Of a stretch of DNA of 64,000 bases, positions 45,209-62,919 are shown piece after piece (positions within the stretch are counted from its first letter, which is position 1; every line of letters begins with the position of its first letter). Position numbers and translations under genes: made by a program. Under the pieces are notes generated by a model. It searched no databases and was not told where the DNA came from. It saw nothing but the letters and a program-made list of their open reading frames with translations. This DNA comes from Ruminococcaceae bacterium OttesenSCG-928-D13 (GTDB lineage: Bacteria > Bacillota > Clostridia > Oscillospirales > Ruminococcaceae), in assembly GCA_030266915.1 (NCBI GenBank), contig JAJDIZ010000001.1, forward strand, positions 9,793-73,792. Reading direction: 5' to 3'.

Positions 45209-45333
45209 TGCTGAACCCGGGCGGGGCAGCCCATGTGGCCTCGTGCCCTTTATTTTTTTGCGTGTCATGTTATACTGAAATGTAGAGCGTTGCCCGCAAT
45301 CACGCGTCATAAGCATTGCCCCATGGAGGTTCC

Positions 45334-45753: not shown

Positions 45754-45765
45754 GGGGAAGAAAAT

Positions 45766-46742: not shown

Positions 46743-47233
46743 TTGCCCGCTTCCTTCGCGGCCCGGCGCCGGTGCGTCCTTCGGGAGACGATCCCCGCCA
46801 GCCACTGCAACAGCAGGCCCAGAGCCATGCCGATGAGCACGCCGCCCATGTCGATGAGCACGTCGGTTACTTCGCCGCTGCGCCCGGCCACATGCAGCTG
46901 GTTGAACTCGTCCAGCACCCCGGTGAGCAGCCCCACCAGCAGCGGCCAGCCCAAAAAGGTGAAGGTGCGCGGGGTGTAGGCCCGCAGGGTCAGCATCAGC
47001 CACAGGCCCAGCAGGGCGTACTCGGCCAGATGGCCAAACTTGCGCACCACAAAGTCCGGGAGAGTGAGGCCAATGCCGGCGAGGAACTCGGTTACCGCGG
47101 CGCTGCGGGCGCCGCTGATGGTGCCGGACTGGCCCGAATTGATGAAGATGAAGATGATGCAGGCCACCGAGATACAGGTGAACAGCGCCCGCTTGACGAG
47201 CACCGACCGTGTGCCCGGTTTTGTCTTAGCCAT
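46739..47233 (-). CDS. VanZ family membrane protein
   Basis: 164 aa with 4-5 helices. KFGHLAEYALLG and DEFNQ..V.GRSG..DV.ID are VanZ-like motifs. Confidence 0.7.
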   Translation of the reverse strand: MAKTKPGTRSVLVKRALFTCISVACIIFIFINSGQSGTISGARSAAVTEFLAGIGLTLPDFVVRKFGHLAEYALLGLWLMLTLRAYTPRTFTFLGWPLLVGLLTGVLDEFNQLHVAGRSGEVTDVLIDMGGVLIGMALGLLLQWLAGIVSRRTHRRRAAKEAGN

Positions 47234-47423
47234 AGAACCTCCGTTTGCCTTGCCCGGCGGGGGATGGGTGTAGATCTTTGTGGAAATCTAAATCATTTGC
47301 GTTTTGCGGAGCATGAGCCATAAGTATAGCACAGGATTGCCGCAAAACAACCGATTGCATTAGATACAACGAGGGTGCCGCGCGGATGCTTTCAGCGGAC
47401 GCCAAAGACAGGAGGCTGGAACC

Positions 47424-48494
47424 ATGGAGGATGTCCGGCGGCTGGTTCGCAGCCATCTTACCAAATATCCCGGCATGGAGGTGGACGATTGCCTCAAGCT
47501 GCTCTATCAGGGCGAGCTGGGCGGCGGCCACCTGATAGAGGACGAGGCCGCCTTTGCCGCGCGCCTTTCGGAGGAGCTGGCGACCCCCGGGCTGTTCACC
47601 GCCGCGCCCCCGGTGCCGGAGCCGGTGGGGGAGGGCCTTTGCCGGGTGCACCTGTCGGCCCTTGAAAGCGGGCCGGGTGTGCCGGTGCTTGCCCGGCTGT
47701 GCGCCCTGAGCGCCGCCCGGGCGAAGGGGCAGGGCAGTCCCGAGCGCCTCGCCGAAAAGCTGCGGGCCTTCGCCGCCATGGACGACGGCAGCCTGCCCTG
47801 GCCACAGGACACGGCCCGCCGCCGGGTGGAGGCCTACCTTGCCGAGGGCTGCCCGGCCCTGCACCACAGCGAGCGCTATCGGCGGCTGTACGCCCCCCAT
47901 TACCGCCTGATGGACGCGGGGCAGGCCCTTTTTCTGTCGGTGTTTGCGGCGGTGGACCGGGCCATGGCCCGGCGGCCCCACGTGCTGGTGGGCATCGACG
48001 GGATGTGCGCCTCGGGCAAGAGCACCCTCGCGGACCTGCTGGCCCGGGTGTACGGCTGCGGGGTGGTGCGGGCCGACGATTTCTTTTTGCAGCCCCACCA
48101 GCGCAGCCCCGAGCGGCTGGCCGCCCCGGGCGGGAACATCGACTACGAGCGCCTTGCCCCGGTGGCCCGGCAGGCCGCCGAGGACCGGCCCTTCCGCTAC
48201 CAGACCTACGACTGCGGCGAGGGGCGGCTGGGGGACTGGCGGGATATTCCGGCCGGGCCGCTCACCCTGCTGGAGGGGGCCTACTGCCTGCATCCGCAGG
48301 TGGCCGCCCCCTGCGACCTGCGAGTGTTCCTCTGGCAGGACGCCGACTGCCAGATGGCCCGGCTGCGCCGCCGCAGCCCCGATCTGGCCGAGCGCTTCCG
48401 GCAGGAGTGGATACCGATGGAGAACCGCTATTTTGCGGCCTTTGGCATCCGGGAGGGCTGTGATTTGGTGCTGGACACCACCGGGCTGGGCTGA
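47424..48494 (+). CDS. Two-domain protein: unknown N-terminal domain fused to a uridine-kinase-like P-loop NTPase
   Basis: The C-terminal half has Walker A (GIDGMCASGKSTLA) and uridine/nucleoside kinase-like blocks. I do not recognise the N-terminal ~190 aa. Confidence 0.55.
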   Translation: MEDVRRLVRSHLTKYPGMEVDDCLKLLYQGELGGGHLIEDEAAFAARLSEELATPGLFTAAPPVPEPVGEGLCRVHLSALESGPGVPVLARLCALSAARAKGQGSPERLAEKLRAFAAMDDGSLPWPQDTARRRVEAYLAEGCPALHHSERYRRLYAPHYRLMDAGQALFLSVFAAVDRAMARRPHVLVGIDGMCASGKSTLADLLARVYGCGVVRADDFFLQPHQRSPERLAAPGGNIDYERLAPVARQAAEDRPFRYQTYDCGEGRLGDWRDIPAGPLTLLEGAYCLHPQVAAPCDLRVFLWQDADCQMARLRRRSPDLAERFRQEWIPMENRYFAAFGIREGCDLVLDTTGLG

Positions 48495-48505
48495 TCGTTT
48501 CCGCA

Positions 48506-48592
48506 CCGCTGCGTGCCGTGGCATTCCAGAGCGAACCTAGGGCTAAGGATATGCGAAGCATGTTCGCGGCGGAATGCCACGGCATGCAGCGG
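48506..48592 (+). repeat. Structured palindromic repeat, copy A (forward core orientation)
   Basis: 22-nt arms CCGCTGCGTGCCGTGGCATTCC / GGAATGCCACGGCATGCAGCGG (1 mismatch) flank the core AGAGCGAACCTAGGGCTAAGGATATGCGAAGCATGTTCGCGGC. Confidence 0.9.
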
Positions 48593-48617
48593 CGCCACAT
48601 TATACGCGCACACCACA

Positions 48618-48645
48618 AACCCGCCACCATGGCGGGTTTTTTGTT
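48618..48645 (+). terminator. Rho-independent terminator
   Basis: AACCCGCC-ACCAT-GGCGGGTT followed by TTTTGTTG, 26 nt after repeat copy A. Confidence 0.8.
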
Positions 48646-48777
48646 GCTTTTGTGGGTGATTCGTGGTATTCTTGGTTTTGGCGGGCAGCATGTTACTGTG
48701 GTAAAGTGATGAAGTGATGCTCGTCAAAAATGCGGCATGGAACTTGAGGAATAAAGTGTAGTGGAGGAATGTACGAT

Positions 48778-50352
48778 ATGGCAAAGAGAATAGCGATAGT
48801 GGGCAGCAGCGGCGGCAACCTGTATGCCCAGGGGGGGAACAACCCGGCCGTGCTGCTGGGGGAGATTTTCACCCAGGCTCAGTCCGCAGGCATCGAGGTG
48901 GCCTTTGTGGAGTTCATCGCGGCAAGCGCGTCGATGGACGGCATCTCGCAGGACGCGCAGGCACGGCTGTACACCCTGCAAAACGGCGCGGCCGCCCCGG
49001 GGCAGGCGGCTACCCTGGCCGAGGTGAACCTGCAGGCCGCTGCGGCTGACGCCCAGCTGGCAGCCAGCATAGCCGCCGGGGAGATTGACGGAATGATCAC
49101 CCTCTCAAGCGACCCGAAAAATGTGAACGCCGAGAGCCTGAAAGCCGCCGCCGAAAAGCAGATTCCGGTGGTGGGCACCGGCGGCACCTCGATGTCGGCC
49201 GCGCAGGCCATGGGGGCGCGGGTGGTGAGCGCCTCGGGCACCACCGGCACCACCAGCCGCACCCGCGCCGTGGCCTTCATCGCCGCGCTGGCCGGGGAGT
49301 TCGGGCTGAAATACACCCCGGTGATCGGCAAGACCGGCGGGTCTGTGGCAGTGGGGGGCGGCCCCTGGAAGCGCATCAACTTTCGGGGCATCATGATGGC
49401 CTCCCTGCCCGGGTTTATCGCCATGGCGCTGATTCTTGCCATCAGCAAGATACCGGGCCTCAGCTTCCTCGAGACCGAGGTGTTCAGCACACTGATCTCG
49501 GTGCTGCCGGCCATCCTTGCGGCCATCGCGGCGAAGCAGATCTCTGGCATGGACGAGATGGGCATCGTGGCCGGCATCGTGGCGGGTATTCTCGCCAAGG
49601 ACGGCGGTATCATCGGGGGCCTGGTGGCCGGTATCCTGGCCGGCGTGCTGGTGTATTACATCGCAACCTTCTGCTTTAAGCGCAAGGTGCCAGGCACCAC
49701 GGTATCCATCGTGGCCGGGGGCCTGTCGGGCCTCGCGGCCGGCCTGGTGGGGATGTACCTTGTGGCGCCGGCGGCCCTCTGGCTGGGCGACGGCATCCGC
49801 TGGATCATCGACAGCGCCATTGCCCTGAGCCCGGCCCTTGCCGGCGCGGTGGCGGGCCTGCTGATCTGGCCGGCCATCATCGGCGGGGTGTACCACGCGG
49901 CCATCCTGCCTATTGTGCTGCTGGAGATGGAGACCGTGGGCCACAGCTTCCTTGGCGCCGTGGACATGACCGGTCTTGTGATGGTCTCGGCCGGCATCAC
50001 GCTGGCCAACATCGTGATGCCCCGCACCTCGGGCGACCGTGCCGCCGCCATCCCGGGCTTTTTGATCAACATGGGCTTCGGCACCTTCGTGGAGGCGGCC
50101 TATCCCTACATGTTCTCCTCGAAGCTAGTGTTTGGCGGGGCGCTGCTGGCCTCCACGGTGTCCGGCGCGCTGGTGGGCATCCTTGGGGTGCGCGGCACGG
50201 CCTACGTGCCCAGCTTTTCGGCCCCGCCCATGGCCAACGAGGGCCACGCCTTCCAGTTTGCGCTGTGCATGTTTGTGGCGCTGGCGCTGGCCTTCCTCGT
50301 CACCTTCTTTGCCAATCTGGCCGCCCGCAAAAAGCAGCCGGAGGAACAGTGA
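48778..50352 (+). CDS. Membrane protein with a PTS EIIC-like (fructose/PTS_EIIC_2-type) C-terminal domain and an unrecognised ~190-aa soluble N-terminal domain
   Basis: ATG at 48778 9 nt after GGAGGA. The C-terminal ~330 aa are polytopic with GGVYHAAILPIVLLEME, reminiscent of EIIC. No EIIA, EIIB, HPr or EI gene is nearby. Confidence 0.5.
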   Translation: MAKRIAIVGSSGGNLYAQGGNNPAVLLGEIFTQAQSAGIEVAFVEFIAASASMDGISQDAQARLYTLQNGAAAPGQAATLAEVNLQAAAADAQLAASIAAGEIDGMITLSSDPKNVNAESLKAAAEKQIPVVGTGGTSMSAAQAMGARVVSASGTTGTTSRTRAVAFIAALAGEFGLKYTPVIGKTGGSVAVGGGPWKRINFRGIMMASLPGFIAMALILAISKIPGLSFLETEVFSTLISVLPAILAAIAAKQISGMDEMGIVAGIVAGILAKDGGIIGGLVAGILAGVLVYYIATFCFKRKVPGTTVSIVAGGLSGLAAGLVGMYLVAPAALWLGDGIRWIIDSAIALSPALAGAVAGLLIWPAIIGGVYHAAILPIVLLEMETVGHSFLGAVDMTGLVMVSAGITLANIVMPRTSGDRAAAIPGFLINMGFGTFVEAAYPYMFSSKLVFGGALLASTVSGALVGILGVRGTAYVPSFSAPPMANEGHAFQFALCMFVALALAFLVTFFANLAARKKQPEEQ

Positions 50353-50391
50353 GGCCATTGCCTCGCATCAGATAAAAGGCCCGCCATCCGT

Positions 50392-51081
50392 TCACAGGGT
50401 GGCGGGTCCTTCTTTGGGTGGGCTGTAGTCCTTCGGTGGATCTGTCTCGTGGTAGATGCGCACCGACAGGGCGGCCGAGGCCGCGTTTGCCAGCAGCAGT
50501 GCCCCGAGGCAGCCGGCCAGCACCGGCAGGGTGTCCACGGACGGGAAGATCCCGGTGAACAGGGCGGGCAAATCCAGAAACAGGGCGATCAATATCAGGG
50601 GAACCAGGCACATCAGAATGGCGGTGAACCGCGCCCGTGCCCGGGTGCCAAAGCCATAGAGAACCGGGCCGAACACCGCGCTGACCACCAGCGGAATCAC
50701 CAGCCCATACCCGGTGGTGAGGAGTGTGCGGTGCAGGTTTATCCCGGCGCCGGTGGCAAGGCCGGTCAGCATCTCAAGCCCGAAGGCGAGCGCCGCCACG
50801 CAGATCAGCAGGGCAAGGTAGACCAGGTGGCGCGCGCCGACGATTGCGCTGCGCCGCACCGGCAGGGCCAGCGTATGGTTTTTCCAGCCGCAGCGGTCAT
50901 CGCTCTCCTGCTGCCCGCAAAACACCCGGAAGGTGTAGACCAGCAGCATCGACGCCCCGAAGGAAAGGCGCCCCGGGCCCATCAGCAGCGCCTGCAGGAA
51001 CAACAGGGCTGCCAGGGCGGGAAACTCCCAAAGGCACCGCCGGACGGTGTAGAACTCTTTCAGCAGCAGGCCCCTCATCAC
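50392..51081 (-). CDS. ABC-2 type transporter permease
   Basis: It starts LLKEFY like its upstream paralog, has 6 helices, and lies downstream of the ATPase in a GntR-controlled operon. Confidence 0.65.
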   Translation of the reverse strand: MMRGLLLKEFYTVRRCLWEFPALAALLFLQALLMGPGRLSFGASMLLVYTFRVFCGQQESDDRCGWKNHTLALPVRRSAIVGARHLVYLALLICVAALAFGLEMLTGLATGAGINLHRTLLTTGYGLVIPLVVSAVFGPVLYGFGTRARARFTAILMCLVPLILIALFLDLPALFTGIFPSVDTLPVLAGCLGALLLANAASAALSVRIYHETDPPKDYSPPKEGPATL

Positions 51082-51099
51082 TATCCCTCCCGCCGCTTT

Positions 51100-51738
51100 T
51101 TAATATTCCCGGGTTTCATAGATGCGGGCAGAGAGGAACATCGACCCAATATACATGGCTACCGCCACCACCCCGGCCACCGCCGCCAGCAAGGGGATGT
51201 TCAGGCCGGAGAAGCGCTCCAGCAGCGCGGTCAGCTGCTTGGAAAACAGCACCGCGCCCAGGACGGGTATCATAGCCACGATCATGATGGCGTAGCGGGC
51301 CTTTTCCGCCCCCAGCTTGTACACGATTGGAGCGATGATGGAGTTGACGATTAAAAACAGCATCGTGCCGACACCGAGGATACCCAAGTTTTCCGGCAGC
51401 CAGCCCTCGGTGCCCCGCACCAGCGCCACAATGGCGGTGAGGCCGAAGGTGAAAGCCATGGTGGCCACCAGCAATAGCAGCAGGAACAGGTACCGCGCCC
51501 CCACAATGGTCACCCGCTTTACCGGTAGGCAGAGGGAGAAGGGCGCCCAGGTGGATTTTTCGTCGATGGAATACTGGCTGATGGAGATGACCAACAGGTA
51601 CATCATCATCATCATCGAGACGTAGGTGGTGCCCAGTTCGGTGAATACGCTGAAAAATATGATAATAACCAGCATGATGGCGAAGTTTTTAAGATAGGCC
51701 CCAGCGGAATAGAACTCTTTCAGCAATAATCCCTTCAT
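51100..51738 (-). CDS. ABC-2 type transporter permease
   Basis: Starts MKGLLLKEFY and has 6 helices. It is a paralog of 50392..51081. Confidence 0.65.
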   Translation of the reverse strand: MKGLLLKEFYSAGAYLKNFAIMLVIIIFFSVFTELGTTYVSMMMMMYLLVISISQYSIDEKSTWAPFSLCLPVKRVTIVGARYLFLLLLLVATMAFTFGLTAIVALVRGTEGWLPENLGILGVGTMLFLIVNSIIAPIVYKLGAEKARYAIMIVAMIPVLGAVLFSKQLTALLERFSGLNIPLLAAVAGVVAVAMYIGSMFLSARIYETREY

Positions 51739-51740
51739 GG

Positions 51741-52601
51741 TTACACCCCCTTGATGGTCAGCAGCATGATGTCATCCACGGTGGCCTTGTCCACCACCAT
51801 ATTTTCGGCGGGGCGGAAGTCCTGCCGGTTGTCGATCAGCGCTTCGATGCCGTAGCCGGTGTCCCGCATGCCCTTCACATGGGCCTTGTCCACCGTCTCC
51901 CAGGTGGCGCGGTCGCAGCGCAGCATCCCGTAGTTGGCCAGCAGCAGGTCCTTCTCGGCGTTCAGCACGATTCTGCCTTGGTGGATGAACACCAGGTAGT
52001 CGGCCGCCTTCTCAATGTCGCTGGTGATGTGGCTGGAGAACAGGATGCTGTTGCCCTCGTCCCCGATGAACTCGAGGAATATGTCCAGAATCTCGTCCCG
52101 CACCACCGGGTCCAGCCCGCTGGTGGCCTCGTCCAGCACCAGCAGCTTCGGGTGGTGGGCCAGGGCGGCGGCCAGGCTCAGCTTCATCTTCATGCCCCGG
52201 GAGAAGGTTTTCAGGGTGCCCTTGCGCACCTTTTCGCTCAGGCCAAAGCGGCCCAGCATCTGGAAGAAATAGGCGCTGTCCCAGTTTTTGTAGATGTTGC
52301 CGAGGATCTTATCTATCTGGGGGGCGCGCAGCCAGTCGTGGAAGCTGATCTCGTCGAACACAACCCCCACGTCCTGGCGGGCGGCGGGGCCGTCGGTGAT
52401 GTTGTCCCGCCCCATCAGGGTGATGGTGCCGGCGTCCCGGCGGGCCACGTCCAGAATGGCCTTGATGGTGGTGGTTTTGCCGGCGCCGTTCTCGCCCACA
52501 AAGCCCACAATGCTGCCGGCCGGCACGTTGAAGCTGACGTTGTCCAGCTTGAAGTTGGGATACTGCTTGCACAGGCCCTTGATCTCGATGTTGTTTGTCA
52601 T
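51741..52601 (-). CDS. ABC transporter ATP-binding protein
   Basis: Walker A GENGAGKTT, signature FSRGMKMKL, Walker B LLVLDEATSGLD. Confidence 0.85.
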   Translation of the reverse strand: MTNNIEIKGLCKQYPNFKLDNVSFNVPAGSIVGFVGENGAGKTTTIKAILDVARRDAGTITLMGRDNITDGPAARQDVGVVFDEISFHDWLRAPQIDKILGNIYKNWDSAYFFQMLGRFGLSEKVRKGTLKTFSRGMKMKLSLAAALAHHPKLLVLDEATSGLDPVVRDEILDIFLEFIGDEGNSILFSSHITSDIEKAADYLVFIHQGRIVLNAEKDLLLANYGMLRCDRATWETVDKAHVKGMRDTGYGIEALIDNRQDFRPAENMVVDKATVDDIMLLTIKGV

Positions 52602-52604
52602 TCC

Positions 52605-52982
52605 TCAGCCCTCGCTTTGGTAAAGTAAAGCCAGCAGCTCGGCCAGCTCATCTTGGGTGATGCCGGACGTTTTTGCCACGTCCACGGCTTTTGCCAGGTG
52701 GCCTTCTGCCACCCGCAGGCGTTCCTCCCGGAGGAATTCCGGGTTTTTGCTGGCCACAAAGCTGCCCTTGCCCGGGATGGTCTCGATGAAACCGTCCCGC
52801 TCCAGGTCTTCGTAGGCGCGCTTGGTGGTGATGACGCTGATGCGCAGGTCCCGGGCCAGCGCCCGGATGCTGGGCAGCGCGTCGCCGGATGCGAGCTGGC
52901 CGCCCAGGATCTGGCTTTTCACCTGCGCGGTGATCTGCTCATAGATGGGCCGGCCGTCGCTGTTGCTGATCAGGATATTCAT
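52605..52982 (-). CDS. GntR family transcriptional regulator (YtrA subfamily)
   Basis: ATG at 52982. The 125-aa protein has PIYEQI...LPSIRALARDLRISVITTKRAYEDLE, and its short C-terminus is typical of YtrA-type regulators of ABC exporters. Confidence 0.85.
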   Translation of the reverse strand: MNILISNSDGRPIYEQITAQVKSQILGGQLASGDALPSIRALARDLRISVITTKRAYEDLERDGFIETIPGKGSFVASKNPEFLREERLRVAEGHLAKAVDVAKTSGITQDELAELLALLYQSEG

Positions 52983-53011
52983 GAGGGCCTCACTGTCAAA
53001 GAGTCGAATAT

Positions 53012-53060
53012 CGTATATATACGCTATGTACAGTATATACACAGTATGCACAGCTGTCAA
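53012..53060 (-). promoter_or_regulatory. GntR-operon promoter with palindromic operator candidates
   Basis: On the minus strand: TTGACA (53060-55), 17 nt, TATACT (53037-32). The palindromes are CGTATATATACG (53012-23) and GTATATAC (53033-40). Confidence 0.55.
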
Positions 53061-53215
53061 TCCCTTTTTTTGAAAAAAGAGGGCATACCCCAAAATATGC
53101 AAAGATATGCCAAGGCAAACCCTGTAAACTGGCAATGGGAAGGCTTATGATAAGGGTGAAAAGCCCTATGCTTCTGGCGGGTATGTTGTGCAGGGTGGCG
53201 GAAGTTAGGCCAGCC

Positions 53216-53298
53216 GGGCAGGCAGCCAGTGTTCAGGAGCGCGGCTAGGGCTTAGGATATGCAGCGCATCCGCGTGGATGAATACTGGCTGACTGCCC
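53216..53298 (+). repeat. Structured palindromic repeat, copy D (forward core orientation)
   Basis: 20-nt arms GGGCAGGCAGCCAGTGTTCA / TGAATACTGGCTGACTGCCC (18/20 paired) flank the core GGAGCGCGGCTAGGGCTTAGGATATGCAGCGCATCCGCGTGGA. Confidence 0.9.
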
Positions 53299-53334
53299 GG
53301 CGGCGCTCCACCATTCTAAAATGAGGTGACTGCG

Positions 53335-55725
53335 ATGCAATACGGCCACTTTGACAACGAAAACCGGGAGTACGTGATCGACCGGGTGGACACCCCCACC
53401 AGCTGGACCAACTACCTTGGCACCGAGGACCTGGTGGCCGTGGTGAACCAGACCGCCGGGGGCTACCTGTTCTACAAATCGGCGGAGTACCACCGCATCA
53501 CCCGTTTCCGGGGCAACGCGGTGCCCAAGGACCGCCCGGGCCACTACATCTACATCCGGGACGACGAGACCGGCGACTACTGGAGCGTGAGCTGGCAGCC
53601 GGTGGCAAAGCCGCTAAAGGCGGCCGACTACCGCTGCCGGCACGGCCTGTCCTACTCGGTGTACAGCTGCGAGTACGGCGGCATCTACGCCGAGCAAACC
53701 CTGTTCATCCCCCGTGGCGAGGCGGTGGAGCTGTGGGATTTGAAGCTCGAGAACCGCAGCGGGCGGCCCCGGAAGCTTAGTGTTTTCTCCTATGCTGAGC
53801 TTAGCTTCCACCACATCGACATGGACAACCGCAACTTCCAGATGAGCCTGTACGCCGCCGGGGGCAGCTACGCCCAGGGGGTGATCCAGCAGGACCTGCA
53901 CTACGAGGAGAACGGCCACCAGTATTTCGCGGCCGATTTTGAGCCCGACGGCTACGACACCGAACGGGACGCCTTCATCGGGGTGTGGAACACCGAGCAA
54001 AACCCCCTCGGGGTGGAGCGGGGCAGCCTTTCCTCCAGCGCCCAGACCGGCGGCAACCAGTGCGCCGCCCTGCACAAGCGCTTCGAGATGGCGGCCGGGG
54101 AAAGCTGTCGGGCCTGCTTTATGCTGGGCGAGGGCGACCGGGCCATCGGCCTGCGGGTGGAGGAGAAATTCGCCGCCCCCGAGGCCCGGGACGCCGCCTT
54201 TGCCGAGCTGGCGGCCTACTGGGCCGAAAAGCTGGCTGCCTTGCAGGTGAAAACCCCGAACGCGGACATGGACACCATGCTCAACTGCTGGAACCTCTAC
54301 CAGAGCGAGGTGAACGTCAAGTTCAGCCGCTTTGCCAGCTTCATCGAGGTGGGCGGCCGCACCGGCCTGGGCTACCGGGACACCGCCCAGGACTCGATGT
54401 GCGTACCCCACTCAAACCCGGTGCGCTGCCGCGAGCGCATTTTGCAGCTGCTCAACGGCCTCACCAGCGAGGGCTACGGCCTGCACCTGTTCCAGCCCGA
54501 ATGGTTCGAGCCGGAGGCCGAGCAGCAGAGCTTCCAAAGCCCCACCGTGATTCCCACGCCGGACCCGGCCTCGATCATCCATGGCCTTGACCATGCTTGC
54601 AGTGACGACGCCCTCTGGCTGATCCCGTCCATCACCGAGTACATCAAGGAGACCGGCGACTTCGACTTTGCAGACAGGCAGGTGAGCTACGCCGATGCCG
54701 GGGTGGACAGTGTCTACGACCACATGAAGACCATCCTTGAGTTCTCGGCCCGGATGGTGGGCATCCACGGCGTCTGCATGGGCCTGCGGGCCGACTGGAA
54801 CGACTGCCTGAACCTGGGCGGCGGCGAGAGCGCCCTGGTGAGCTTTTTGCACCTCTGGGCGCTGAACAACTTCATCGGGCTGGCCCGCCGCCTTGGCCGG
54901 GACGCCGACGTGGAGCATTTCAGCGAGATGGCCCGGACCGTGAAGGACACCTGCAACACCCACCTGTGGGACGGCGAGTGGTTTTTACGGGGCTTCACCC
55001 GCACCGGGCGGCCCATTGGCACAAATGCCGACGCCGAGGGCAAAATCCATCTCGAAAGCAACGTCTGGGCGGTGATCTCCGGCGCGGCCGATGCCGAACA
55101 TGGCGCCCGGGCGATGGACAGCGTGCGCGAGCACCTGGCCACCGAGTGGGGCATCGAGCTGAACGGCCCGGCCTACACCCGCCCCGACGACGACGTGGGC
55201 TTTGTCACCCGGGTGTACCCGGGCCTCAAGGAGAACGCCTCGATTTTCAGCCATCCGAACCCCTGGGCCTGGGCCGCCGAGTGCGCCCTTGGCCGGGGCG
55301 GGCGGGCGATGGAGCTCTACGACAGCCTCTGCCCCGCCGCCCAGAACGACAAGATCGAAACCCGCAAGGCCGAGCCTTACAGCTACTGTCAGTTCATCAC
55401 TGGGCGCAGCCACATCGGCTTTGGCGAGGCTCATCACCCGTTCATGACCGGCAGCGGCGGCTGGAGCTACTTCGCCGCCACCCACAACATGCTGGGCATC
55501 CAGCCTGACTACGACGGCCTGATCGTCGACCCCTGCATCCCGCCCGAGTGGGACGGCTTCTCGGCCACCCGCCGCTTCCGCGGGGCCTTCTATGACATCA
55601 CCGTGCAAAACCCGAACCATGTGAGCCGCGGGGTGAAAGCCCTGACCGTGGACGGCCGGCCCGTGGATGCCATCCCGCTGCTGCCCGAGGGCCAGCGCTG
55701 CGCGGTGGAAGTGGTGCTGGGCTGA
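53335..55725 (+). CDS. GH94 family glycoside phosphorylase (cellobiose/chitobiose/laminaribiose phosphorylase-like)
   Basis: The MQYGHFDNENREYVIDRVDTPTSWTNYLG N-terminus and ~800 aa length are typical of GH94 disaccharide phosphorylases. A phosphoglucomutase gene follows. Confidence 0.8.
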   Translation: MQYGHFDNENREYVIDRVDTPTSWTNYLGTEDLVAVVNQTAGGYLFYKSAEYHRITRFRGNAVPKDRPGHYIYIRDDETGDYWSVSWQPVAKPLKAADYRCRHGLSYSVYSCEYGGIYAEQTLFIPRGEAVELWDLKLENRSGRPRKLSVFSYAELSFHHIDMDNRNFQMSLYAAGGSYAQGVIQQDLHYEENGHQYFAADFEPDGYDTERDAFIGVWNTEQNPLGVERGSLSSSAQTGGNQCAALHKRFEMAAGESCRACFMLGEGDRAIGLRVEEKFAAPEARDAAFAELAAYWAEKLAALQVKTPNADMDTMLNCWNLYQSEVNVKFSRFASFIEVGGRTGLGYRDTAQDSMCVPHSNPVRCRERILQLLNGLTSEGYGLHLFQPEWFEPEAEQQSFQSPTVIPTPDPASIIHGLDHACSDDALWLIPSITEYIKETGDFDFADRQVSYADAGVDSVYDHMKTILEFSARMVGIHGVCMGLRADWNDCLNLGGGESALVSFLHLWALNNFIGLARRLGRDADVEHFSEMARTVKDTCNTHLWDGEWFLRGFTRTGRPIGTNADAEGKIHLESNVWAVISGAADAEHGARAMDSVREHLATEWGIELNGPAYTRPDDDVGFVTRVYPGLKENASIFSHPNPWAWAAECALGRGGRAMELYDSLCPAAQNDKIETRKAEPYSYCQFITGRSHIGFGEAHHPFMTGSGGWSYFAATHNMLGIQPDYDGLIVDPCIPPEWDGFSATRRFRGAFYDITVQNPNHVSRGVKALTVDGRPVDAIPLLPEGQRCAVEVVLG

Positions 55726-55739
55726 AGATGTGCAAGGCT

Positions 55740-55828
55740 GGCGTTCGCACAGCCGGTGTTCCTCCACGCGGATGCGCTGCATATCCTAAGCCCTAGCCGC
55801 GCTCCAGAACACCGCCTGCACGAACGCC
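55740..55828 (-). repeat. Structured palindromic repeat, copy E (reverse core orientation)
   Basis: The reverse complement has a 43-nt core identical to copy D. Arms are GGCGTTCGCACAGCCGGTGTTC / GAACACCGCCTGCACGAACGCC (19/22 paired). Confidence 0.9.
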
Positions 55829-55895
55829 CGGGCAGCCGGTACGCCTCCTTTAAGAAAACACATTAACACCAAAAAACCAAACTAAGAGGTGAATC

Positions 55896-57308
55896 ATGGT
55901 TAAATTTGGCACCGGCGGCTGGCGCGCCATTATTGGCGACGGCTTCACCAAAGCCAACCTGCAGCTGCTCACCACGGCCATCATTCGCAAGCTCAAGGAC
56001 GACGGCCTGGCCGACGCCGGCTTTGTCATCGGCTACGACCGGCGCTTCCTCAGCGAGGAGGCCGCCCGCTGGGCCGCCGAGGTGGTGGCGGGGGAGGGGG
56101 TGCACTGCCGCATCATCAACCGGGCCAGCCCCACTCCGCTGATCATGTATGCCGTGAACCTCTACGGCATCCCCTACGGCATGGCCATCACGGCCAGCCA
56201 CAACCCGGCCATCTACAACGGGGTGAAGGTGTTCATGAGCGGCGGCAGAGACGCCGACGAGGAGCTGACCGCCGAGTTTGAGGGCTACATCGGGGAGCTT
56301 GGCCCCGAGGATGTGCGCCTTGTGCCCTACGAGGATGCCCTTGCCGCCGGCACCATCGAGCTGGTGGACCCGATGAACCAGTACATCGACTCGATTCTTA
56401 AAACGGTGGACACCGAGGCCATCCGAAGCGCCGCGCTCTACGTGGCGATGGACCCGATGTTCGGCGTGTCCAAAACGGCGCTGCAAACCATCCTGCTCAC
56501 CTGCCGCTGCGAGGTGGATATGATCCACGAACGGCGGGACGCCCTGTTCGGCGGGCGGCTGCCGGCCCCCAGCCAGGAGACCCTGGCCCCCCTGATCACC
56601 CACATGCGGGAGAACCACTGCGACATCGGTCTGGCCACCGACGGCGACGCCGACCGCCTTGGGGTGATCGACGACGAGGCCCAGTTCCTGCATCCCAACA
56701 AAATTTTGGTGCTGCTTTACTACTACCTGCTGAAATACAAGGGCTGGCGGGGCGCCGCGGTACGCAACCTGGCAACCACCCACCTGCTGGACAGGATTGC
56801 CGAAGACTTTGGCGAGACCTGCTACGAGGTGCCGGTGGGCTTCAAGTATGTCAGCAGCAAGATGGTGGAGACCGGGGCCATCATTGGAGGCGAGAGCAGC
56901 GGGGGCCTGACGGTGCGCGGCCACATCCAGGGCAAGGACGGCATCTACGCCGGCACTCTGTTGGTGGAGATGCTGGCCAAGAGCGGCCGCAAGCTCAGCG
57001 ACCTGTGGCGGGACATCGAGGAAAAGTACGGCCGCTGCGAAATGGTGGAGCGGGACTACCACTTCACCGAGGAGAAGAAGGCCGAAATGTACCGCACCCT
57101 GCTTGCGGACAAGCTGCTGCCCGAATTCCCCCACGAGGTGGACCATGTGAGCTATCTGGACGGCTGCAAGGTCTACTTCAAAAACGGCGGCTGGGTGATT
57201 GCACGCTTCTCCGGTACCGAGCCGCTGCTGCGCATCTTTGCCGAGATGGACAGCCAATGGGAGGCCAGCCTTGCGGCCGACACGCTGGAGCACTTTCTGG
57301 GGTTATAA
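55896..57308 (+). CDS. Phosphoglucomutase/phosphomannomutase family protein
   Basis: FGTGGWR at the N-terminus, active-site loop TASHNP, and the metal loop DGDADR. Confidence 0.85.
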   Translation: MVKFGTGGWRAIIGDGFTKANLQLLTTAIIRKLKDDGLADAGFVIGYDRRFLSEEAARWAAEVVAGEGVHCRIINRASPTPLIMYAVNLYGIPYGMAITASHNPAIYNGVKVFMSGGRDADEELTAEFEGYIGELGPEDVRLVPYEDALAAGTIELVDPMNQYIDSILKTVDTEAIRSAALYVAMDPMFGVSKTALQTILLTCRCEVDMIHERRDALFGGRLPAPSQETLAPLITHMRENHCDIGLATDGDADRLGVIDDEAQFLHPNKILVLLYYYLLKYKGWRGAAVRNLATTHLLDRIAEDFGETCYEVPVGFKYVSSKMVETGAIIGGESSGGLTVRGHIQGKDGIYAGTLLVEMLAKSGRKLSDLWRDIEEKYGRCEMVERDYHFTEEKKAEMYRTLLADKLLPEFPHEVDHVSYLDGCKVYFKNGGWVIARFSGTEPLLRIFAEMDSQWEASLAADTLEHFLGL

Positions 57309-57335
57309 GCAAAGTGAATAATGGCCGCGCCCCCG

Positions 57336-57414
57336 TGTGCCGTGGCATTCCTCCGCTCACATGCTTCGCATATCCTTAGCCCTAGGTTCGCTCCGGAATG
57401 CCCCGGCCCACGGC
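57336..57414 (-). repeat. Structured palindromic repeat, copy B (reverse core orientation, slightly degenerate)
   Basis: The reverse complement reads GGAGCGAACCTAGGGCTAAGGATATGCGAAGCATGTGAGCGGA. The GCCGTGGCATTCC / GGAATGCC..CACGGC arms are like copy A, with a 7-nt bulge. Confidence 0.85.
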
Positions 57415-57490
57415 GTCGCTACCCTTTGATTACATACCAAGGCGGGCGTCTCAGCGCCCGTCTTTCTGTTTCTCCAGCATTCTACATATT

Positions 57491-59311
57491 ATGGTATACT
57501 TGTGGGGATATAATACGGAAGGAGGCGGCCTTTTGGAGCCTGATAAAATCGGCGCTGAACCGAAAAGCGGCGGCCGTGTTTCCCTGAAATGGAGCCTTGT
57601 GCTGCTGATTCTCATCTGCTGGGTGCTGCCCCTGACCGTGACAGTGGCGGTCAGCGGATACCAGTCGGTGCGCAGCACCCGCGAGCGGGTGGCCGACATC
57701 GTCACCGCCAGCGTGGAGAACACCATGGGCCTGGCCGTGCGGGACTTGAACACCGCCGTCAACGAGGCGCTCAGCGTCAGCTATGTGCCCACGGTGCGGC
57801 AGGCCTACATGAACTACCAATCCACCGGCAACAAGGTGAGCCTGATGACCACCACCCGCACCTTCCTCGGGCAGAAATACTACCGCAGCCAGATGGTCCG
57901 GGCGGCCTATGTGGTCTACCCCGAGCTGGCCGTGGACGACACCATCCTGGCGTACAACCAGGACGCCTACAGCTGGTCCGAGGCGGCCCGGTTCTACGAA
58001 ACCGGCCTGTACGACGAAATCAGCGCGTTGATGGGGGAACTGGATACCGGCATCGCCTTCCGCTACGAGAACGGCCGGCTGTACCTTGCCCGGCTGCTCA
58101 GCCTGCAAGAACGCAGCTTCAGCCCCTACGCGGCCCTGGTGGAGGACATCGACCTGACCCAGCTGTTCGATGGGGTGCATCGCCTGCCCTATGTCACCTT
58201 TGCCTCGGTGACGGTGGGCGGCTGCGAGATTCTCATCGAGGATGAGGGCCAGGCAGCCGGGGCTGATCCGGTTGCCAAAAGCGGCCGGAGCAGCGATATT
58301 GAGGTGATGGAGGGCGTCCTTCCCGGCGAACGGTTCGAGCTTTCCTACCGCCTCACCGCCGACCTGCGGCCCCTGACGGAACAGATGAGCAACCCGCTGG
58401 GGGTGCTGCTGTGGATCGCGCTGTTCAGCCTGGGGCTGATGATGGTGGTGGTGACCTTCTTCATGCGGCGGATCAGCCGGCCCATCAATATTCTCAGCCG
58501 CTTTGCCGGGCAGATCGAGCGGGGTGATTTTGGCGCCCAAACTGATATCGAAAAGCTTGGCAACACCGAGTTTGTCACCCTCGGCCAGCGGATGAATGCC
58601 ATGAGCGCCCGGCTGGAGCACCAGTTCGAGCACATCTACCGGGAGGAGCTGGCCCTGCGGGACGCCCGCATCAAGGCGCTGCAAAGCCAGATTAACCCCC
58701 ACTTCCTCGGCAACACCCTCGAGACCATCAACTGGGAGGCGCGCCTGGCCGGCAACGAAAAGGTGAGCCGGATGCTGGAGGCGCTGTCCACCATGATGGG
58801 CGCCACCCTGGACCGCAGCCACCGCCCGCTGGTGCACCTGTCGGAGGAACTGGCCTACGTGAACGCCTACCTGCTGATCATCGGCGAACGACTGGGCAAG
58901 CGGCTGAGCGTGGTGAAGGAGATTGACGAGAGCCTGCTGGACTGGATGGTGCCGCGCCTGGTGCTGCAGCCCATCGTGGAGAATGCCATCGAGCACGGGG
59001 TGAGCGGCCGCCAAAGTGGGCGCATTGTGATCCGGGTGATCCGCCGGGCCGGGGACTGGATGAGCCTTGAGGTGGAGAACGACGGCCTGATGCCCCCGGA
59101 AAACGAGCGCCGGGTGCGAGAACTGCTGGAGAGTGAGACCGAGCCCGAAGGGGTTAATTCCTACAATATCGGCATCCGCAACGTACACCAGCGGCTGCGC
59201 CTGCTCTACGGCCCGGGGGGCGGCCTTTCCGTCACAAACACCAAAAACGGAACCACCCTTTCGGCAATGTGCATACAGGAGCATCAAATACACCAAATCG
59301 AGTCAAGTTAA
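57491..59311 (+). CDS. Sensor histidine kinase (YesM-like: TM-sensor-TM-HAMP-His_kinase-HATPase_c)
   Basis: HAMP region (ISRPINILSRFAGQIERGDF), QINPHFLGNTLETI H-box and a C-terminal GHKL ATPase. The start is uncertain: ATG at 57491, or TTG at 57533 8 nt after GGAGG. Confidence 0.8.
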   Translation: MVYLWGYNTEGGGLLEPDKIGAEPKSGGRVSLKWSLVLLILICWVLPLTVTVAVSGYQSVRSTRERVADIVTASVENTMGLAVRDLNTAVNEALSVSYVPTVRQAYMNYQSTGNKVSLMTTTRTFLGQKYYRSQMVRAAYVVYPELAVDDTILAYNQDAYSWSEAARFYETGLYDEISALMGELDTGIAFRYENGRLYLARLLSLQERSFSPYAALVEDIDLTQLFDGVHRLPYVTFASVTVGGCEILIEDEGQAAGADPVAKSGRSSDIEVMEGVLPGERFELSYRLTADLRPLTEQMSNPLGVLLWIALFSLGLMMVVVTFFMRRISRPINILSRFAGQIERGDFGAQTDIEKLGNTEFVTLGQRMNAMSARLEHQFEHIYREELALRDARIKALQSQINPHFLGNTLETINWEARLAGNEKVSRMLEALSTMMGATLDRSHRPLVHLSEELAYVNAYLLIIGERLGKRLSVVKEIDESLLDWMVPRLVLQPIVENAIEHGVSGRQSGRIVIRVIRRAGDWMSLEVENDGLMPPENERRVRELLESETEPEGVNSYNIGIRNVHQRLRLLYGPGGGLSVTNTKNGTTLSAMCIQEHQIHQIESS

Positions 59312-59439
59312 GGCAAGTCCGGTCATGGCAAAGGCCGGGTTGTTTTGGGTAAGATGAAGGTACAAACTGGTGCCGCTGTATCCGGGCGCCGGTTAGGATA
59401 CAAACAACACGGAGAAACCATGACAACTGGAGGTAAGAC

Positions 59440-60762
59440 ATGAAAAGGAAATTTGCACTGCTCTTGGCTTTGGTGATGTGTATTGGCTTATTGGCCGCCT
59501 GCGGCGGCGACAGCGGCTCGTCTGCTCCCGCCAGCACCGGGGGAGACAATCCCGCTCCCTCCGATAACCCGGTGGAGCTGACCGTGGTCACCTCCTACGG
59601 CCAGGAGGACGGCAACCGCGGCATCTATGAGGAAAGCTACAAGGCCTGGGAGGCCGCCACCGGCAACACCGTGCACGATTCCTCATCCATGTCCAACGAG
59701 GAGTGGAAGGCCCAGGTGCTGAGTGACTTCGAGGCCGGCAGCGAGCCCGACGTGCTGTTCTACTTTGCCTTTGCCGACGGCGACCCGCTGGTGAACGGCG
59801 GCAAGGTGGTGCCGATCGACGAGATTCGCGCCGAGTTCCCCGACTATGCCTCCAACATGGATGACGCCAGAATCCCGGCCTCCACTGCCGACGGGAAAAA
59901 ATACGTGGTGCCCACCACGGGCATCTGGGAGGGGCTGTTTTGTAACAATGTGGTGCTGGCCGAAGCCGGCGTAACAGCGCCCACCGTGGATACCACCTGG
60001 GATGAGTTTTTGGAGATGTGCCAGAAGGTGAAGGACGCGGGCTATACCCCGATTGCGGTATCCCTGGCCAGCGTTCCCCATTATTGGTTCGAGTTCCTGA
60101 TTATGAACAAGGGCGGCTTTGCTGACCACCTGCAGATGCCCACAGAGTCCGAGGCTGCCCGCACCGCCTGGATAGAGGGTCTGGAAGGGTTCAGGCAGCT
60201 GTATGAGCTGGGCTACCTCCCCGACAACACGCTCACCAACACCGATGATGAGGCCGTTTTGATGATGGCCGAGGATAAGGCTGCCTTCCTGATTGACGGA
60301 AGCTGGAAGGTGGGCTGGTTCAAAAGCAACGCAAACTCTGACAACTATTCGGTCACCTATGTGCCCGGCAACAGCGTGCGTTCGGCGGACGAAATCATCG
60401 GCGGCGCCTCCATGGGCTACATGATTACCCGCAAGGCCTGGGATGACCCCGACAAGCGCGCCGCCGCCGTCAGCTTCATCGAGCATATGACCAGCGACGA
60501 CGTGGTGAGCCGGATGAGCGCCAACAACCTGGGCACCAACGCCCTGAAGAACAGTCCGGCCATTACAGACTTCCCGGACAAGATCAGCGAGACGGCCTAC
60601 CAGATGGCCACCGGCGCTGCAAAGCAGAGTGGTGCTGTGCAGGACTTGGCCGCTGTAGACGCCCGAAACGAGTTGTTCACCAACGACATCCCGCAGATTG
60701 CGGCCGGCCAGATGACCGCCGAGGAAGCCGTGGATAAGTTCATCGCAGCCTACAACGGCTAA
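59440..60762 (+). CDS. Carbohydrate ABC transporter substrate-binding lipoprotein (family 1)
   Basis: GGAGG RBS. The signal peptide has the lipobox LLAAC. The body is SBP_bac_1-like. Confidence 0.8.
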   Translation: MKRKFALLLALVMCIGLLAACGGDSGSSAPASTGGDNPAPSDNPVELTVVTSYGQEDGNRGIYEESYKAWEAATGNTVHDSSSMSNEEWKAQVLSDFEAGSEPDVLFYFAFADGDPLVNGGKVVPIDEIRAEFPDYASNMDDARIPASTADGKKYVVPTTGIWEGLFCNNVVLAEAGVTAPTVDTTWDEFLEMCQKVKDAGYTPIAVSLASVPHYWFEFLIMNKGGFADHLQMPTESEAARTAWIEGLEGFRQLYELGYLPDNTLTNTDDEAVLMMAEDKAAFLIDGSWKVGWFKSNANSDNYSVTYVPGNSVRSADEIIGGASMGYMITRKAWDDPDKRAAAVSFIEHMTSDDVVSRMSANNLGTNALKNSPAITDFPDKISETAYQMATGAAKQSGAVQDLAAVDARNELFTNDIPQIAAGQMTAEEAVDKFIAAYNG

Positions 60763-60879
60763 AACGCAGCCAACGGCCGGGGAGTGAGAGATCGCTCTCC
60801 GGCCATTTTAAAAAAGATGAGGAGTGCCAGCCGGGTTGGACACCCGGCGGTGTCCGGCACCATTTTTGGAGGCGAACCG

Positions 60880-61782
60880 ATGAAAAACCATAACTCGATG
60901 ATCTTCAAAAAGAAGGGGCCGCTGCTGCTGTTCCTGGTGCCGGCCTTCGCCTTCCTGGCGGTGTACCTGTTCTATCCCTTTGTGCTGAACATTTGGAACA
61001 GCTTCCAGGACATCGGGGGCCTGGGCCAGGCTCCCGCCGGCATGAACGACCCCTGGTACAAAAACTACACCGATATGGCCACCGACCCGGTGATGCACAC
61101 CGCCATTTTGAATACACTGCTGATCATGCTGTGCACCATCCTGTTCCAGGTGGGCATCGCGCTGGTTCTGGCCCTGATGGTGGACGGCATCCGCGTGGGC
61201 AACCAGTTTTTCCGCACCGTCTACTTTTTCCCGATCATCATCTCGGCCACCGCCCTTGGGCTGATGTTCAACATGGTGTTCCTGTACGACGGCGGCATGG
61301 TCAATGAGCTGCTGCACAGCATGGGGCTGATCTCGAAAAATATCGACTGGAAGGACCAGAGCCACTGGTTCTTCACGATGACCGCCCCGGTGATGTGGCA
61401 GTACGTGGGCTTCTACTTCGTCATCATCGTCACCGGACTCAACAACATCTCGCCCGACATTTACGAGGCGGCCGAGATTGACGGTGCCTCGGCCATGCAG
61501 CGCATTTTCCGCATCAAGCTGCCGCTGCTGCACAACACCCTGATGACCTGCCTTGTGCTGGCCATCACCGGCGCACTCAAGGTGTTTGACCTGCCCTGGA
61601 CCATGTTCCCCAACGGCATTCCGCTGAACGCCAGCTGGCTGACCGGCACCTACATGTACAAGCAGACCCTGGGCGGCGCCCAGAACGTGGACTATGGCTC
61701 GGCCATTTCAATTCTGATTGTGGTGCTCGGGGTGGTCATCAGCCAGGTGGCCAACGCCATTTTCAAAGAGAAGGATTACTGA
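60880..61782 (+). CDS. Carbohydrate ABC transporter permease (MalF/UgpA-like)
   Basis: Track ORF 60784.., with the ATG at 60880 after GGAGG. It has the EAA loop (YEAAEIDGASAMQRIFRIKLP). Confidence 0.85.
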   Translation: MKNHNSMIFKKKGPLLLFLVPAFAFLAVYLFYPFVLNIWNSFQDIGGLGQAPAGMNDPWYKNYTDMATDPVMHTAILNTLLIMLCTILFQVGIALVLALMVDGIRVGNQFFRTVYFFPIIISATALGLMFNMVFLYDGGMVNELLHSMGLISKNIDWKDQSHWFFTMTAPVMWQYVGFYFVIIVTGLNNISPDIYEAAEIDGASAMQRIFRIKLPLLHNTLMTCLVLAITGALKVFDLPWTMFPNGIPLNASWLTGTYMYKQTLGGAQNVDYGSAISILIVVLGVVISQVANAIFKEKDY

Positions 61783-61797
61783 GGGGAGGCGCGAAAC

Positions 61798-62685
61798 ATG
61801 ACAACCAGCCCGCTGGTGAAAAAACAGCGCAACCCTGTGCGGGCGGCGCTGAGCAAGATAGTCATCTACATTGTTTTGGGGCTGTGGGCCGCCACCACCA
61901 TCTTTCCCTTTTTGTGGGTGCTGGGCAACTCGTTCAAGGAGCGGAAGTTCATTCTGTCTGAGACCTTTGCCATCCCAACCGGGGATATGTTCACCACCAG
62001 CAACTACCAGACAGCCTTCGACCGCATCCCGATTTTCACGGCCTACCGCAACAGCCTTGTTATCTCGGGCGCGGTGACGGTGTTTGTCATCATCATTGCC
62101 GGGCTGTGCGCCTACGGCCTTGCCCGGTACAGCTTCAAGGGGCGCCGCCTGCTGCACTCCATCGTGCTGGCCGCCATGATGTTCCCGGCCTTCGCCACAA
62201 TCATCCCGGTGTACCGCATGGAGTTCCAGTGGGGCATCGCCAACACCCACAGCCTGCCCCTCACCTGGCTTTCAATTATTTTGCCCCAGGTGGCCGGCAA
62301 CATCAGCTTCGCGGTCATTGTGCTGATGGGCTACATTCGCAGCCTGCCCATAGACCTGGAGGAGGCCGCCTTCCTCGAGGGCTATGGGGTCACCCGCATC
62401 TTCTTCCGCATCATCATGCCACTGGCCCGGCCAAGCTTCGCCACGGTGGGTATCTTCACCTTCCTGTGGAGTTACAACGACCTGTTCACCCAGCTGTTCT
62501 TTTTGCGCTACGAGAAGTTCTATTCCATCACCCGCCTGCTGAACATGATTTCCAGCCAGGAGGGCACCAACTACGGCCTGCTGTGCTCGGCCGTGGTGCT
62601 GGTGGTGGTGCCGGTGCTGATTGTCTACATCCTGTTGCAGAAGAACATTGTGAAAGGCCTCACCGCCGGGGCGATAAAGGGCTAG
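61798..62685 (+). CDS. Carbohydrate ABC transporter permease (MalG/UgpE-like)
   Basis: EAA loop LEEAAFLEGYGVTRIFFRIIMP and six helices. Confidence 0.85.
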   Translation: MTTSPLVKKQRNPVRAALSKIVIYIVLGLWAATTIFPFLWVLGNSFKERKFILSETFAIPTGDMFTTSNYQTAFDRIPIFTAYRNSLVISGAVTVFVIIIAGLCAYGLARYSFKGRRLLHSIVLAAMMFPAFATIIPVYRMEFQWGIANTHSLPLTWLSIILPQVAGNISFAVIVLMGYIRSLPIDLEEAAFLEGYGVTRIFFRIIMPLARPSFATVGIFTFLWSYNDLFTQLFFLRYEKFYSITRLLNMISSQEGTNYGLLCSAVVLVVVPVLIVYILLQKNIVKGLTAGAIKG

Positions 62686-62720
62686 TTCTTTTATTGTATC
62701 CGATTCCACAGAGGCAGCAG

Positions 62721-62805
62721 CATCGAGGGGCAGGGCTTTCCAGAGCGAACCTAGGGCTAAGGATGTGCAACGCACGTTCGCGGCGGAAAGACCTGACACT
62801 CGATG
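62721..62805 (+). repeat. Structured palindromic repeat, copy C (forward core orientation)
   Basis: Arms CATCGAGGGGCAGGGCTTTCC / GGAAAGACCTGACACTCGATG (18/21 paired) flank the core AGAGCGAACCTAGGGCTAAGGATGTGCAACGCACGTTCGCGGC. Confidence 0.9.
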
Positions 62806-62824
62806 TTGCGGACCTGGAGCTTTC

Positions 62825-62850
62825 AGCCCTCCTGATGGAGGGCTTTTTTC
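62825..62850 (+). terminator. Rho-independent terminator
   Basis: AGCCCTCC-TGAT-GGAGGGCT followed by TTTTTC, 19 nt after repeat copy C. Confidence 0.8.
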
Positions 62851-62919
62851 TTGACGCATCCCAGCCGGGACAGTACAATTGACTAAGATGTTTTCGCGCA
62901 AGTCCAAGTGGGGTGAAAG

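Follow-up and report, generated by a model that had tools for sequence, protein, structure and literature searches.

Much is known about the small dispersed hairpin repeats of Proteobacteria (REP/REPIN-RAYT) and streptococci (BOX, RUP), and almost nothing, to our knowledge, about those of gut Clostridia. REPINs are mobile hairpins with a variable part in which compensatory changes are frequent, and they are defined by two conserved REP sequences that lie inverted at the base of the hairpin with a less conserved spacer between them (PMC3116915). We analysed a stretch of 64,000 nucleotides (contig JAJDIZ010000001.1, positions 9,793 to 73,792; hereafter the window) from OttesenSCG-928-D13 (D13), an unclassified member of the Oscillospiraceae from the termite gut, that carries five copies of a non-coding hairpin repeat of ~90-105 nt. 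The repeat family is real and previously undescribed, and is best filed as one more sort of small dispersed hairpin repeat, a kind already known. Its layout is unusual: the base varies, the tip is asymmetric and invariant, and the mismatches show a strict strand bias. We hold with moderate confidence that it is a non-autonomous mobile hairpin repeat that would be recognised through its apical module in single-stranded form.

The copies share a 14-mer, CTAGGGCTWAGGAT, which occurs five times in the window, each time exactly even when up to two mismatches are allowed; dinucleotide-preserving shuffles give a chance expectation of 0.30, and none of 100 shuffles reaches five. A covariance model was built on seven sequences, the five window copies and two relatives from the genome of another termite-gut isolate, OttesenSCG-928-O06 (O06; GCA_030265505.1), which together make up the whole data set of seven copies from two genomes. 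When scanned over the window with filters off, the model returned exactly the five copies at 82-99 bits, and all other matches scored at most 29 bits and were ordinary terminator hairpins that scored on both strands. A preliminary description made from the sequence of the window had placed five copies at these sites and on these strands; all are present, with ends that the model shifts by a few nucleotides. The copies are listed below, where P1 is the outer stem, P2 the inner helix and P3 the small apical hairpin.

Copy A, 48506-48592, plus strand, 98.9 bits with the covariance model
48506-48527, plus strand, copy A: 5' arm of P1
48528-48530, plus strand, copy A: internal loop AGA
48531-48536, plus strand, copy A: 5' strand of P2, GCGAAC
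48537-48550, plus strand, copy A: 14-nt bulge
48551-48561, plus strand, copy A: P3, ATGC-GAA-GCAT
48562-48567, plus strand, copy A: 3' strand of P2, GTTCGC
48568-48570, plus strand, copy A: internal loop GGC
48571-48592, plus strand, copy A: 3' arm of P1
Copy D, 53214-53300, plus strand, 93.1 bits: bulge CTAGGGCTTAGGAT at 53245-53258; P2 is GCGCGG/CCGCGT; P3 loop is AGC
Copy E, 55741-55827, minus strand, 91.8 bits: bulge at 55783-55796; belongs to the subfamily of copy D
Copy B, 57330-57416, minus strand, 81.6 bits: bulge at 57372-57385; belongs to the subfamily of copy A
Copy C, 62720-62806, plus strand, 90.6 bits: bulge at 62751-62764; P3 is GTGC-AAC-GCAC

The common fold begins with P1, which is ~22 bp long (reaching ~30 bp in some copies) and variable in sequence between copies, and continues through a purine-rich internal loop, RGA facing GGM, into the 6-bp helix P2. 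The 14-nt segment follows unpaired on the 5' side only, so that the bulge measures 14 nt on that side versus 0 nt on the other; P3, a 4-bp hairpin (RTGC/GCAY) with a loop of 3-4 nt, comes next and is directly followed by the 3' strand of P2. RNAalifold, run unguided, gave the same structure and recovered 31 of these pairs. The predicted folding energy of the copies is -42 to -65 kcal/mol as RNA (z-scores -4.8 to -8.0) and -25 to -38 kcal/mol as single-stranded DNA. No pseudoknot partner for the 14-mer was found, and its sole variable position (A/T) has no covarying partner.

Pairing is maintained while sequence changes. Over the seven sequences and 32 pairs, standard pairs fill 90.2% of cells, compared with 64.5% in shuffles and 30-48% in controls in which the partner strand was slid. 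Changes on both sides are seen in 27 of the 32 pairs, and none of 500 shuffles matches the copies on any covariation measure, a test that overstates significance because the sequences are so few and related. What makes the case for covariation convincing is the comparison with slid controls, together with the variety of pair types, and the structural covariation proposed in the preliminary description is upheld. The stems quoted there are likewise right, as are the triple compensation in the inner helix, where AAC/GTT in A and C becomes CGG/CCG in D and E, the swap of the P3 closing pair from A-T to G-C and the variable triloops. The covariation of the inner helix stands for A, C, D and E, and for copy B there is an addition to be made: its P2 is GCGAAC/GTGAGC, with a tandem G·A/A·G at the centre instead of Watson-Crick pairs. 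The same tandem G·A/A·G occupies the same two P2 positions in both O06 copies. The 14-mer and P3 are unchanged across the two genomes while the stems diverge.

The oppositions in the stems that are not Watson-Crick pairs reveal which strand folds. There are 34 of them (13 G·T, 16 G·A, 4 G·G and 1 A·A), deriving from 24 distinct column-and-type events, and not one of the 34 falls in the complementary set of A·C, C·T, C·C and T·T; a sign test over the 24 events gives ~1e-7. Since the mismatches all belong to the first set and none to its complement, one defined strand folds, or folded, as RNA or as single-stranded DNA. Because the copies lie in both orientations with respect to transcription and to the chromosome, the bias tracks the polarity of the element itself, and a strand-biased mutational process in the host does not account for it. 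In agreement, folding predictions make the sense strand more stable than the antisense strand for all five window copies as RNA and for four of five as DNA. The polarity that had been read from the one-sided 14-nt segment is thus borne out both by the bulge and by the 34-to-0 asymmetry of the mismatches.

The invariant core also stands out from its surroundings in composition. CTAG is ~20-fold depleted in the window as a whole, with 12 observed versus 229 expected from base composition, yet 5 of the 12 CTAG, and all five CTAGG, sit in the invariant core (cores at 48537, 53245, 55793, 57382 and 62751), so the core is constrained or of foreign origin. The hexamer CCTAGG is seen 4 times in the window, where 21 are expected.

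All five copies lie within 14.3 kb in the last 16 kb of the window; by our own calculation, the chance that five uniformly placed points fall within 14.3 of 64 kb is ~0.01. The copies also form sibling pairs. D (plus) and E (minus) share 91% identity over 70 nt; their 43-nt cores are the same and their outer stems differ by ~25%, with compensation. A (plus) and B (minus), which are 87% identical over 89 nt, are nested around them, in the order A(+) [ D(+) GH94 E(-) phosphoglucomutase ] B(-). Copy C shares with A a core that is 91% identical over 55 nt, and its outer stem is unrelated. As judged from this kinship, the arrangement looks like local duplicative spread of copies; the identical cores of D and E between diverged arms might reflect gene conversion limited to the core. 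As a separate observation, G+C content is 0.63-0.64 across window positions 44000-60000, compared with 0.57-0.61 in most of the first 44 kb, and this high-GC stretch holds four of the five copies, copy C falling just beyond it in a bin of 0.59.

As the preliminary description had stated, all copies in the window are intergenic and both orientations relative to the neighbouring genes occur, A, C and D being sense and B and E antisense. Copy A starts 11 nt past the stop codon (48494) of a P-loop kinase-like open reading frame, sense to this upstream gene, and ends 24 nt ahead of a separate intrinsic terminator (48617-48639). Copy D lies between a divergent GntR/ABC operon and the GH94 chitobiose phosphorylase gene, with its end 35 nt ahead of the GH94 ATG (53335), and in its sense orientation there it is probably part of the 5' untranslated region (UTR); the GH94 product is an N,N'-diacetylchitobiose phosphorylase whose next relative beyond D13 is 75% identical. 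Copy E is placed between the GH94 stop codon (55725) and the start codon of the phosphoglucomutase gene (55896), antisense to both, and copy B between the phosphoglucomutase stop codon (57308) and a plus-strand terminator (57439-57464), antisense to the operon. Copy C, in sense orientation, comes after the last ABC permease gene (stop codon at 62685) and before a terminator at 62825-62844. None of the copies has a T run after it, and A, B and C each have a separate terminator 18-24 nt past them; identity as an intrinsic terminator is rejected on these grounds. A promoter scan found no sigma-70-like promoter upstream of copy B on its own strand.

Directly 3' of the hairpin, three copies show a weak and very short motif: CGCCACATTATAC in A (48593-48608), CGCGGCCATTATTCAC in B (57314-57329, minus strand) and CGCTCCACCATTCTAA in D (53301-53320). 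By analogy with the 5' tail of the proposed REPIN intermediate, the element may carry a short single-stranded 3' tail. The sequence shared by the three, CGC..CCA(C)ATT(A/C)T, is too weak for use, as are -10 boxes of promoter-like form close to some of the copies.

Outside D13 the family is rare. An exact-core scan of 185,579 species-representative genomes gave 34 loci, 32 of which were chance matches on inspection of their flanks; the two real ones are both in O06 and are the only exact cores in that genome. One lies in the smc-ftsY spacer and one downstream of the glutamate racemase gene (murI), both in sense orientation. Scans of metagenomes (14 matches) and of viral sequences (3 matches) gave chance matches only, without the hairpin. 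Rfam 15 had no match anywhere in the window at gathering thresholds, and at E<=10 over positions 48000-63500 it gave only weak matches of 20-24 bits, far under the gathering scores (Leu_leader, Hrs1, Hrs10, P9 and Ysr49), mostly overlapping the adjacent terminators. BLASTN of copy A against plasmid and phage collections returned nothing, and a full-text literature search for the 14-mer on either strand, as DNA or RNA, returned one unrelated paper on the human genome. On this evidence the family, which the preliminary description could assign to no named one, has not been described before, and within the collections searched its distribution is extremely narrow.

Related genomes lack the element at corresponding places. 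The syntenic locus of isolate A16, which runs GH94, phosphoglucomutase (PGM), histidine kinase (HK), substrate-binding protein (SBP), permease, permease, response regulator (RR), lacks the element in all four corresponding spacers. The smc-ftsY spacer of O06 is 188 nt long, of which the copy takes 88 nt; this spacer measures 90 nt in a related contig from ENA and 219 nt in isolate I18, neither with a copy. Judged from these genome sequences, the comparison shows the element to be apparently lineage-specific and dispensable. The gene contexts are unrelated as well: the D13 copies border a chitobiose locus and a kinase-like gene, and those of O06 the housekeeping genes murI, smc and ftsY. As side observations, the smc-ftsY copy of O06 stands within a conserved rnc-smc-ftsY gene string (O06 locus 5530-10912), so that a long double-stranded RNA hairpin would be present in an operon encoding RNase III. 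Between PGM and the HK gene, A16 carries an aminoglycoside N-acetyltransferase-like gene (Antibiotic_NAT, minus strand, 14045-14791), at the position where D13 (57308-57500) has only copy B and the terminator. Upstream of GH94, A16 has CorA and an acetyltransferase and D13 a PmtR/PmtA-like GntR-ABC exporter operon.

We infer mobility, a single-stranded intermediate, a protein partner and any effect as RNA from this pattern, and propose the following working. The element would spread by duplicative insertion into transcribed intergenic spacers, new copies landing mostly nearby and in either orientation. Its functional form would be a single strand of defined polarity, either single-stranded DNA or RNA, in which a long stem, free in sequence provided that pairing is kept, carries an apical recognition module composed of the purine-rich internal loop, the 6-bp helix, the single-stranded CTAGGGCTWAGGAT and the small capped hairpin. 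An enzyme encoded elsewhere in the genome might read this module, as RAYT does on REP/REPIN hairpins and HUH nucleases do on the conserved loops of variable stems. Copies would persist only where they are harmless, be it in the gap that separates a stop codon from its terminator, in an intercistronic spacer or in a 5' UTR. Inserted copies would be co-transcribed and would probably form stable RNA hairpins too, acting as blocks to 3' exonucleases or as substrates for RNase III. We favour this reading because it would jointly explain the dispensability, the unrelated contexts, the clustering with inverted sibling pairs, the mixed orientations and the strand-specific folding.

Several observations weigh against a mobile element. 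Pfam analysis of ~55 open reading frames covering the window found only metabolic, transport and regulatory genes, with no transposase, HUH, integrase or reverse-transcriptase domain; the link to a RAYT or IS200/IS605-type enzyme suggested in the preliminary description thus finds no counterpart there. No target-site duplication, no conserved termini and no direct repeat common to the flanks of any copy were found, a negative that is weak for the duplication because the exact ends of the copies are uncertain. Copy number appears low, with two exact-core copies in the O06 genome and none in the metagenome and viral scans. At 74-85% amino-acid identity, the genomes without the element are only distantly related, so their loci do not count as true empty sites. 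Finally, the 14-mer is perfectly kept while other positions differ by ~20-25% between copies, which also fits selection on each copy in place, that is, a host function.

This last point leads to a reading that we consider possible though not probable, in which the repeat is a host-selected structured RNA module, serving in cis for processing or stability, or else as a platform for protein binding, and acting from untranslated parts of mRNAs. The strong covariation fits such a role, as do the G·U and tandem G·A pairs confined to the sense strand, the fact that copy B and both O06 copies have their tandem G·A/A·G at matching helix positions, and the invariance of the 14-mer and P3 over two genomes despite stem divergence. 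Five of the seven copies are sense to the adjacent gene and all lie in spacers that are probably transcribed, A, C and the O06 copy R12 in 3' UTRs and D and the O06 copy R20 in 5' UTR or intercistronic positions. By analogy with the intercistronic signals of phage T7, the long double-stranded stem with its internal loop could be an RNase III site; stem length and internal loop would be compatible with such a signal (~20 bp or more of double-stranded RNA), and one O06 copy belongs to the rnc-smc-ftsY operon, where RNase III is encoded. Alternatively, the bulge UAAGGAUGU, which contains GGA, could be a CsrA-type binding site; both ideas go by resemblance. What speaks against an RNA module is that B and E are antisense to their own operon, with no promoter-like site before B on its own strand, that the neighbouring genes have no common function, that no Rfam family is matched and that the element is absent from the orthologous operons of relatives and so is not needed for their regulation. 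The local inverted pairs, moreover, suggest duplication of DNA over convergent evolution of RNA. The preliminary description had left the choice between a REP/MITE-like DNA element and an RNA module. Of these we favour the DNA element because of its absence at syntenic loci, the unrelated genes in the second genome, the local clustering with inverted pairs, the two antisense copies among seven and the lack of a promoter for B; the RNA reading is weakened, and the definitions of REP/REPIN and MITE do not describe the repeat. A mobile repeat and an RNA effect would not be exclusive, to judge by REP and BOX elements, which also affect host mRNAs.

It is unlikely that the repeat serves as a double-stranded or cruciform site for a chromosomal protein (nucleoid-associated or a regulator), with the 14-mer as the protein site and the inverted repeats promoting cruciform extrusion. 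Such a site would function in either orientation, which fits the mixed orientations, and all copies are intergenic; an analogy is the IHF-binding centre of E. coli BIME/RIP, and the asymmetric conserved centre flanked by inverted repeats resembles RIP/BIME-1. The 34-to-0 asymmetry of the non-Watson-Crick oppositions and the covariation of P2 and P3 would be left unexplained, however, G·A mismatches within 22-bp stems suggest pairing inside one strand, and there is no candidate protein. We regard as very improbable that D/E and A/B are the recombination sites of an inverton, an invertible segment switching GH94 and PGM on and off. GH94 does lie between D and E, inverted repeats whose 43-nt cores are identical, and A and B flank a larger segment, nested likewise, but gene order and orientation equal those of the repeat-free A16 locus, the window has no recombinase gene, and copy C and the O06 copies have no partner. 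A crossover in the core would also swap arms that differ by ~25%, with loss of self-complementarity, whereas the copies are in fact well paired, and the inverton is rejected for this reason. 

It is possible, though not probable, that we are dealing with a new class of mobile or host-recruited nucleic-acid module, whose specificity would reside in the invariant, CTAG-containing, one-sided 14-nt bulge atop a freely evolving stem and would be read on one strand only by a partner. Such a class could take either of two forms, a new sort of single-strand (retro-)transposition system in Clostridia that is inside-out relative to REPINs, or a new protein-binding or catalytic RNA motif under selection at each locus.

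Other identities were considered and rejected. Integron attC sites are recognised by RYYYAAC/GTTRRRY boxes at the stem base, same-orientation arrays after cassettes and an adjacent intI; in this repeat AAC/GTT is confined to P2 of copies A and C, with CGG/CCG in its place in D and E, the copies do not share one orientation, the flanking genes keep the A16 synteny and the window has no integrase. The defining motifs of group II intron domain V, hammerhead, pistol and K-turn are absent on inspection, and the Rfam models that exist for most of these gave no match.

Two further inverted repeats were seen elsewhere in the window. At 42134-42202, between an ArsP-type permease gene and a convergent IclR regulator gene, a 32-bp inverted repeat that is 97% perfect, with a 5-nt loop and A and T runs on both flanks, looks like a bidirectional terminator. 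At 37755-37797, in the AT-rich spacer between a PucR/CdaR-type sugar-diacid regulator gene and a glycerate kinase gene, a 13-bp perfect inverted repeat, TTACGGAGAACAT-N16-ATGTTCTCCGTAA, may be a candidate operator for that regulator.

Today the repeat is mainly a lead, with seven copies from two isolates of uncultivated lineages, a proposed mobility and a putative function. Since stable hairpins of 35-65 kcal/mol stand in untranslated regions of the chitobiose-utilisation locus, they could affect mRNA processing there. Should a partner enzyme be found, the family would offer a compact system for learning how such elements are recognised and copied.

Several known systems share parts of this design. 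Like the RNase III signals of phage T7, the repeat forms multiple intercistronic hairpins of ~20 bp with a conserved internal loop in polycistronic transcripts; the T7 signals are all sense and phage-borne, whereas two of the seven copies here are antisense. The BOX elements of Streptococcus pneumoniae (PMC3049150) are also Gram-positive interspersed repeats with no known transposase that form stable stem-loops, are co-transcribed and occur in both orientations, but they are modular (boxA-boxB(n)-boxC) and conserved throughout, lack an invariant one-sided bulge on a varying stem and show no sequence similarity to the repeat. With MITEs such as RUP of S. pneumoniae and the Correia elements it has in common its size, non-coding nature, hairpin potential, intergenic location and, perhaps, presence or absence between related genomes. 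MITE termini, however, are the most conserved part, matching a parent insertion sequence (IS), and are accompanied by target-site duplications; here no duplication is visible and the termini are least conserved, the distal arms differing among A/B, C and D/E and forming the least conserved columns. The hairpins at HUH nick sites (rolling-circle origins, IS200/IS605 ends) likewise present a conserved single-stranded motif on a variable stem and are read on one strand, but they are short (~8-12 bp), each replicon or IS has only one or two of them, beside the enzyme gene, and the window has no HUH gene; the resemblance would lie in the way of working and not in sequence.

The closest likeness in kind is to REP/REPIN sequences mobilised by RAYT transposases in Pseudomonas and Enterobacteria (PMC3116915, PMC3337134), which are also short non-coding extragenic hairpins of ~70-110 nt, thought to act as single-stranded hairpins, in which one part is conserved and the other only paired and which are tolerated in transcribed spacers. 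The repeat described here shares the extragenic site, a predicted single-strand hairpin and the compensatory changes. It differs in having no GTAG-type REP motif and a Gram-positive host of the class Clostridia, and in its apparently low count, two exact-core copies in the O06 genome and at least five in D13, set against the tens to hundreds per genome of REP/REPIN sequences. The gene for RAYT, a Y1 transposase, typically has REPs on its flanks; the ~55 open reading frames of the window include no RAYT gene and no Y1_Tnp domain. The main difference is one of architecture. REPINs have conserved REPs at the base and a variable tip, whereas the seven-copy alignment shows one conserved apical module and variable basal arms, a single asymmetric module at the tip of a variable base, so that by comparison the repeat is a REPIN turned inside-out.

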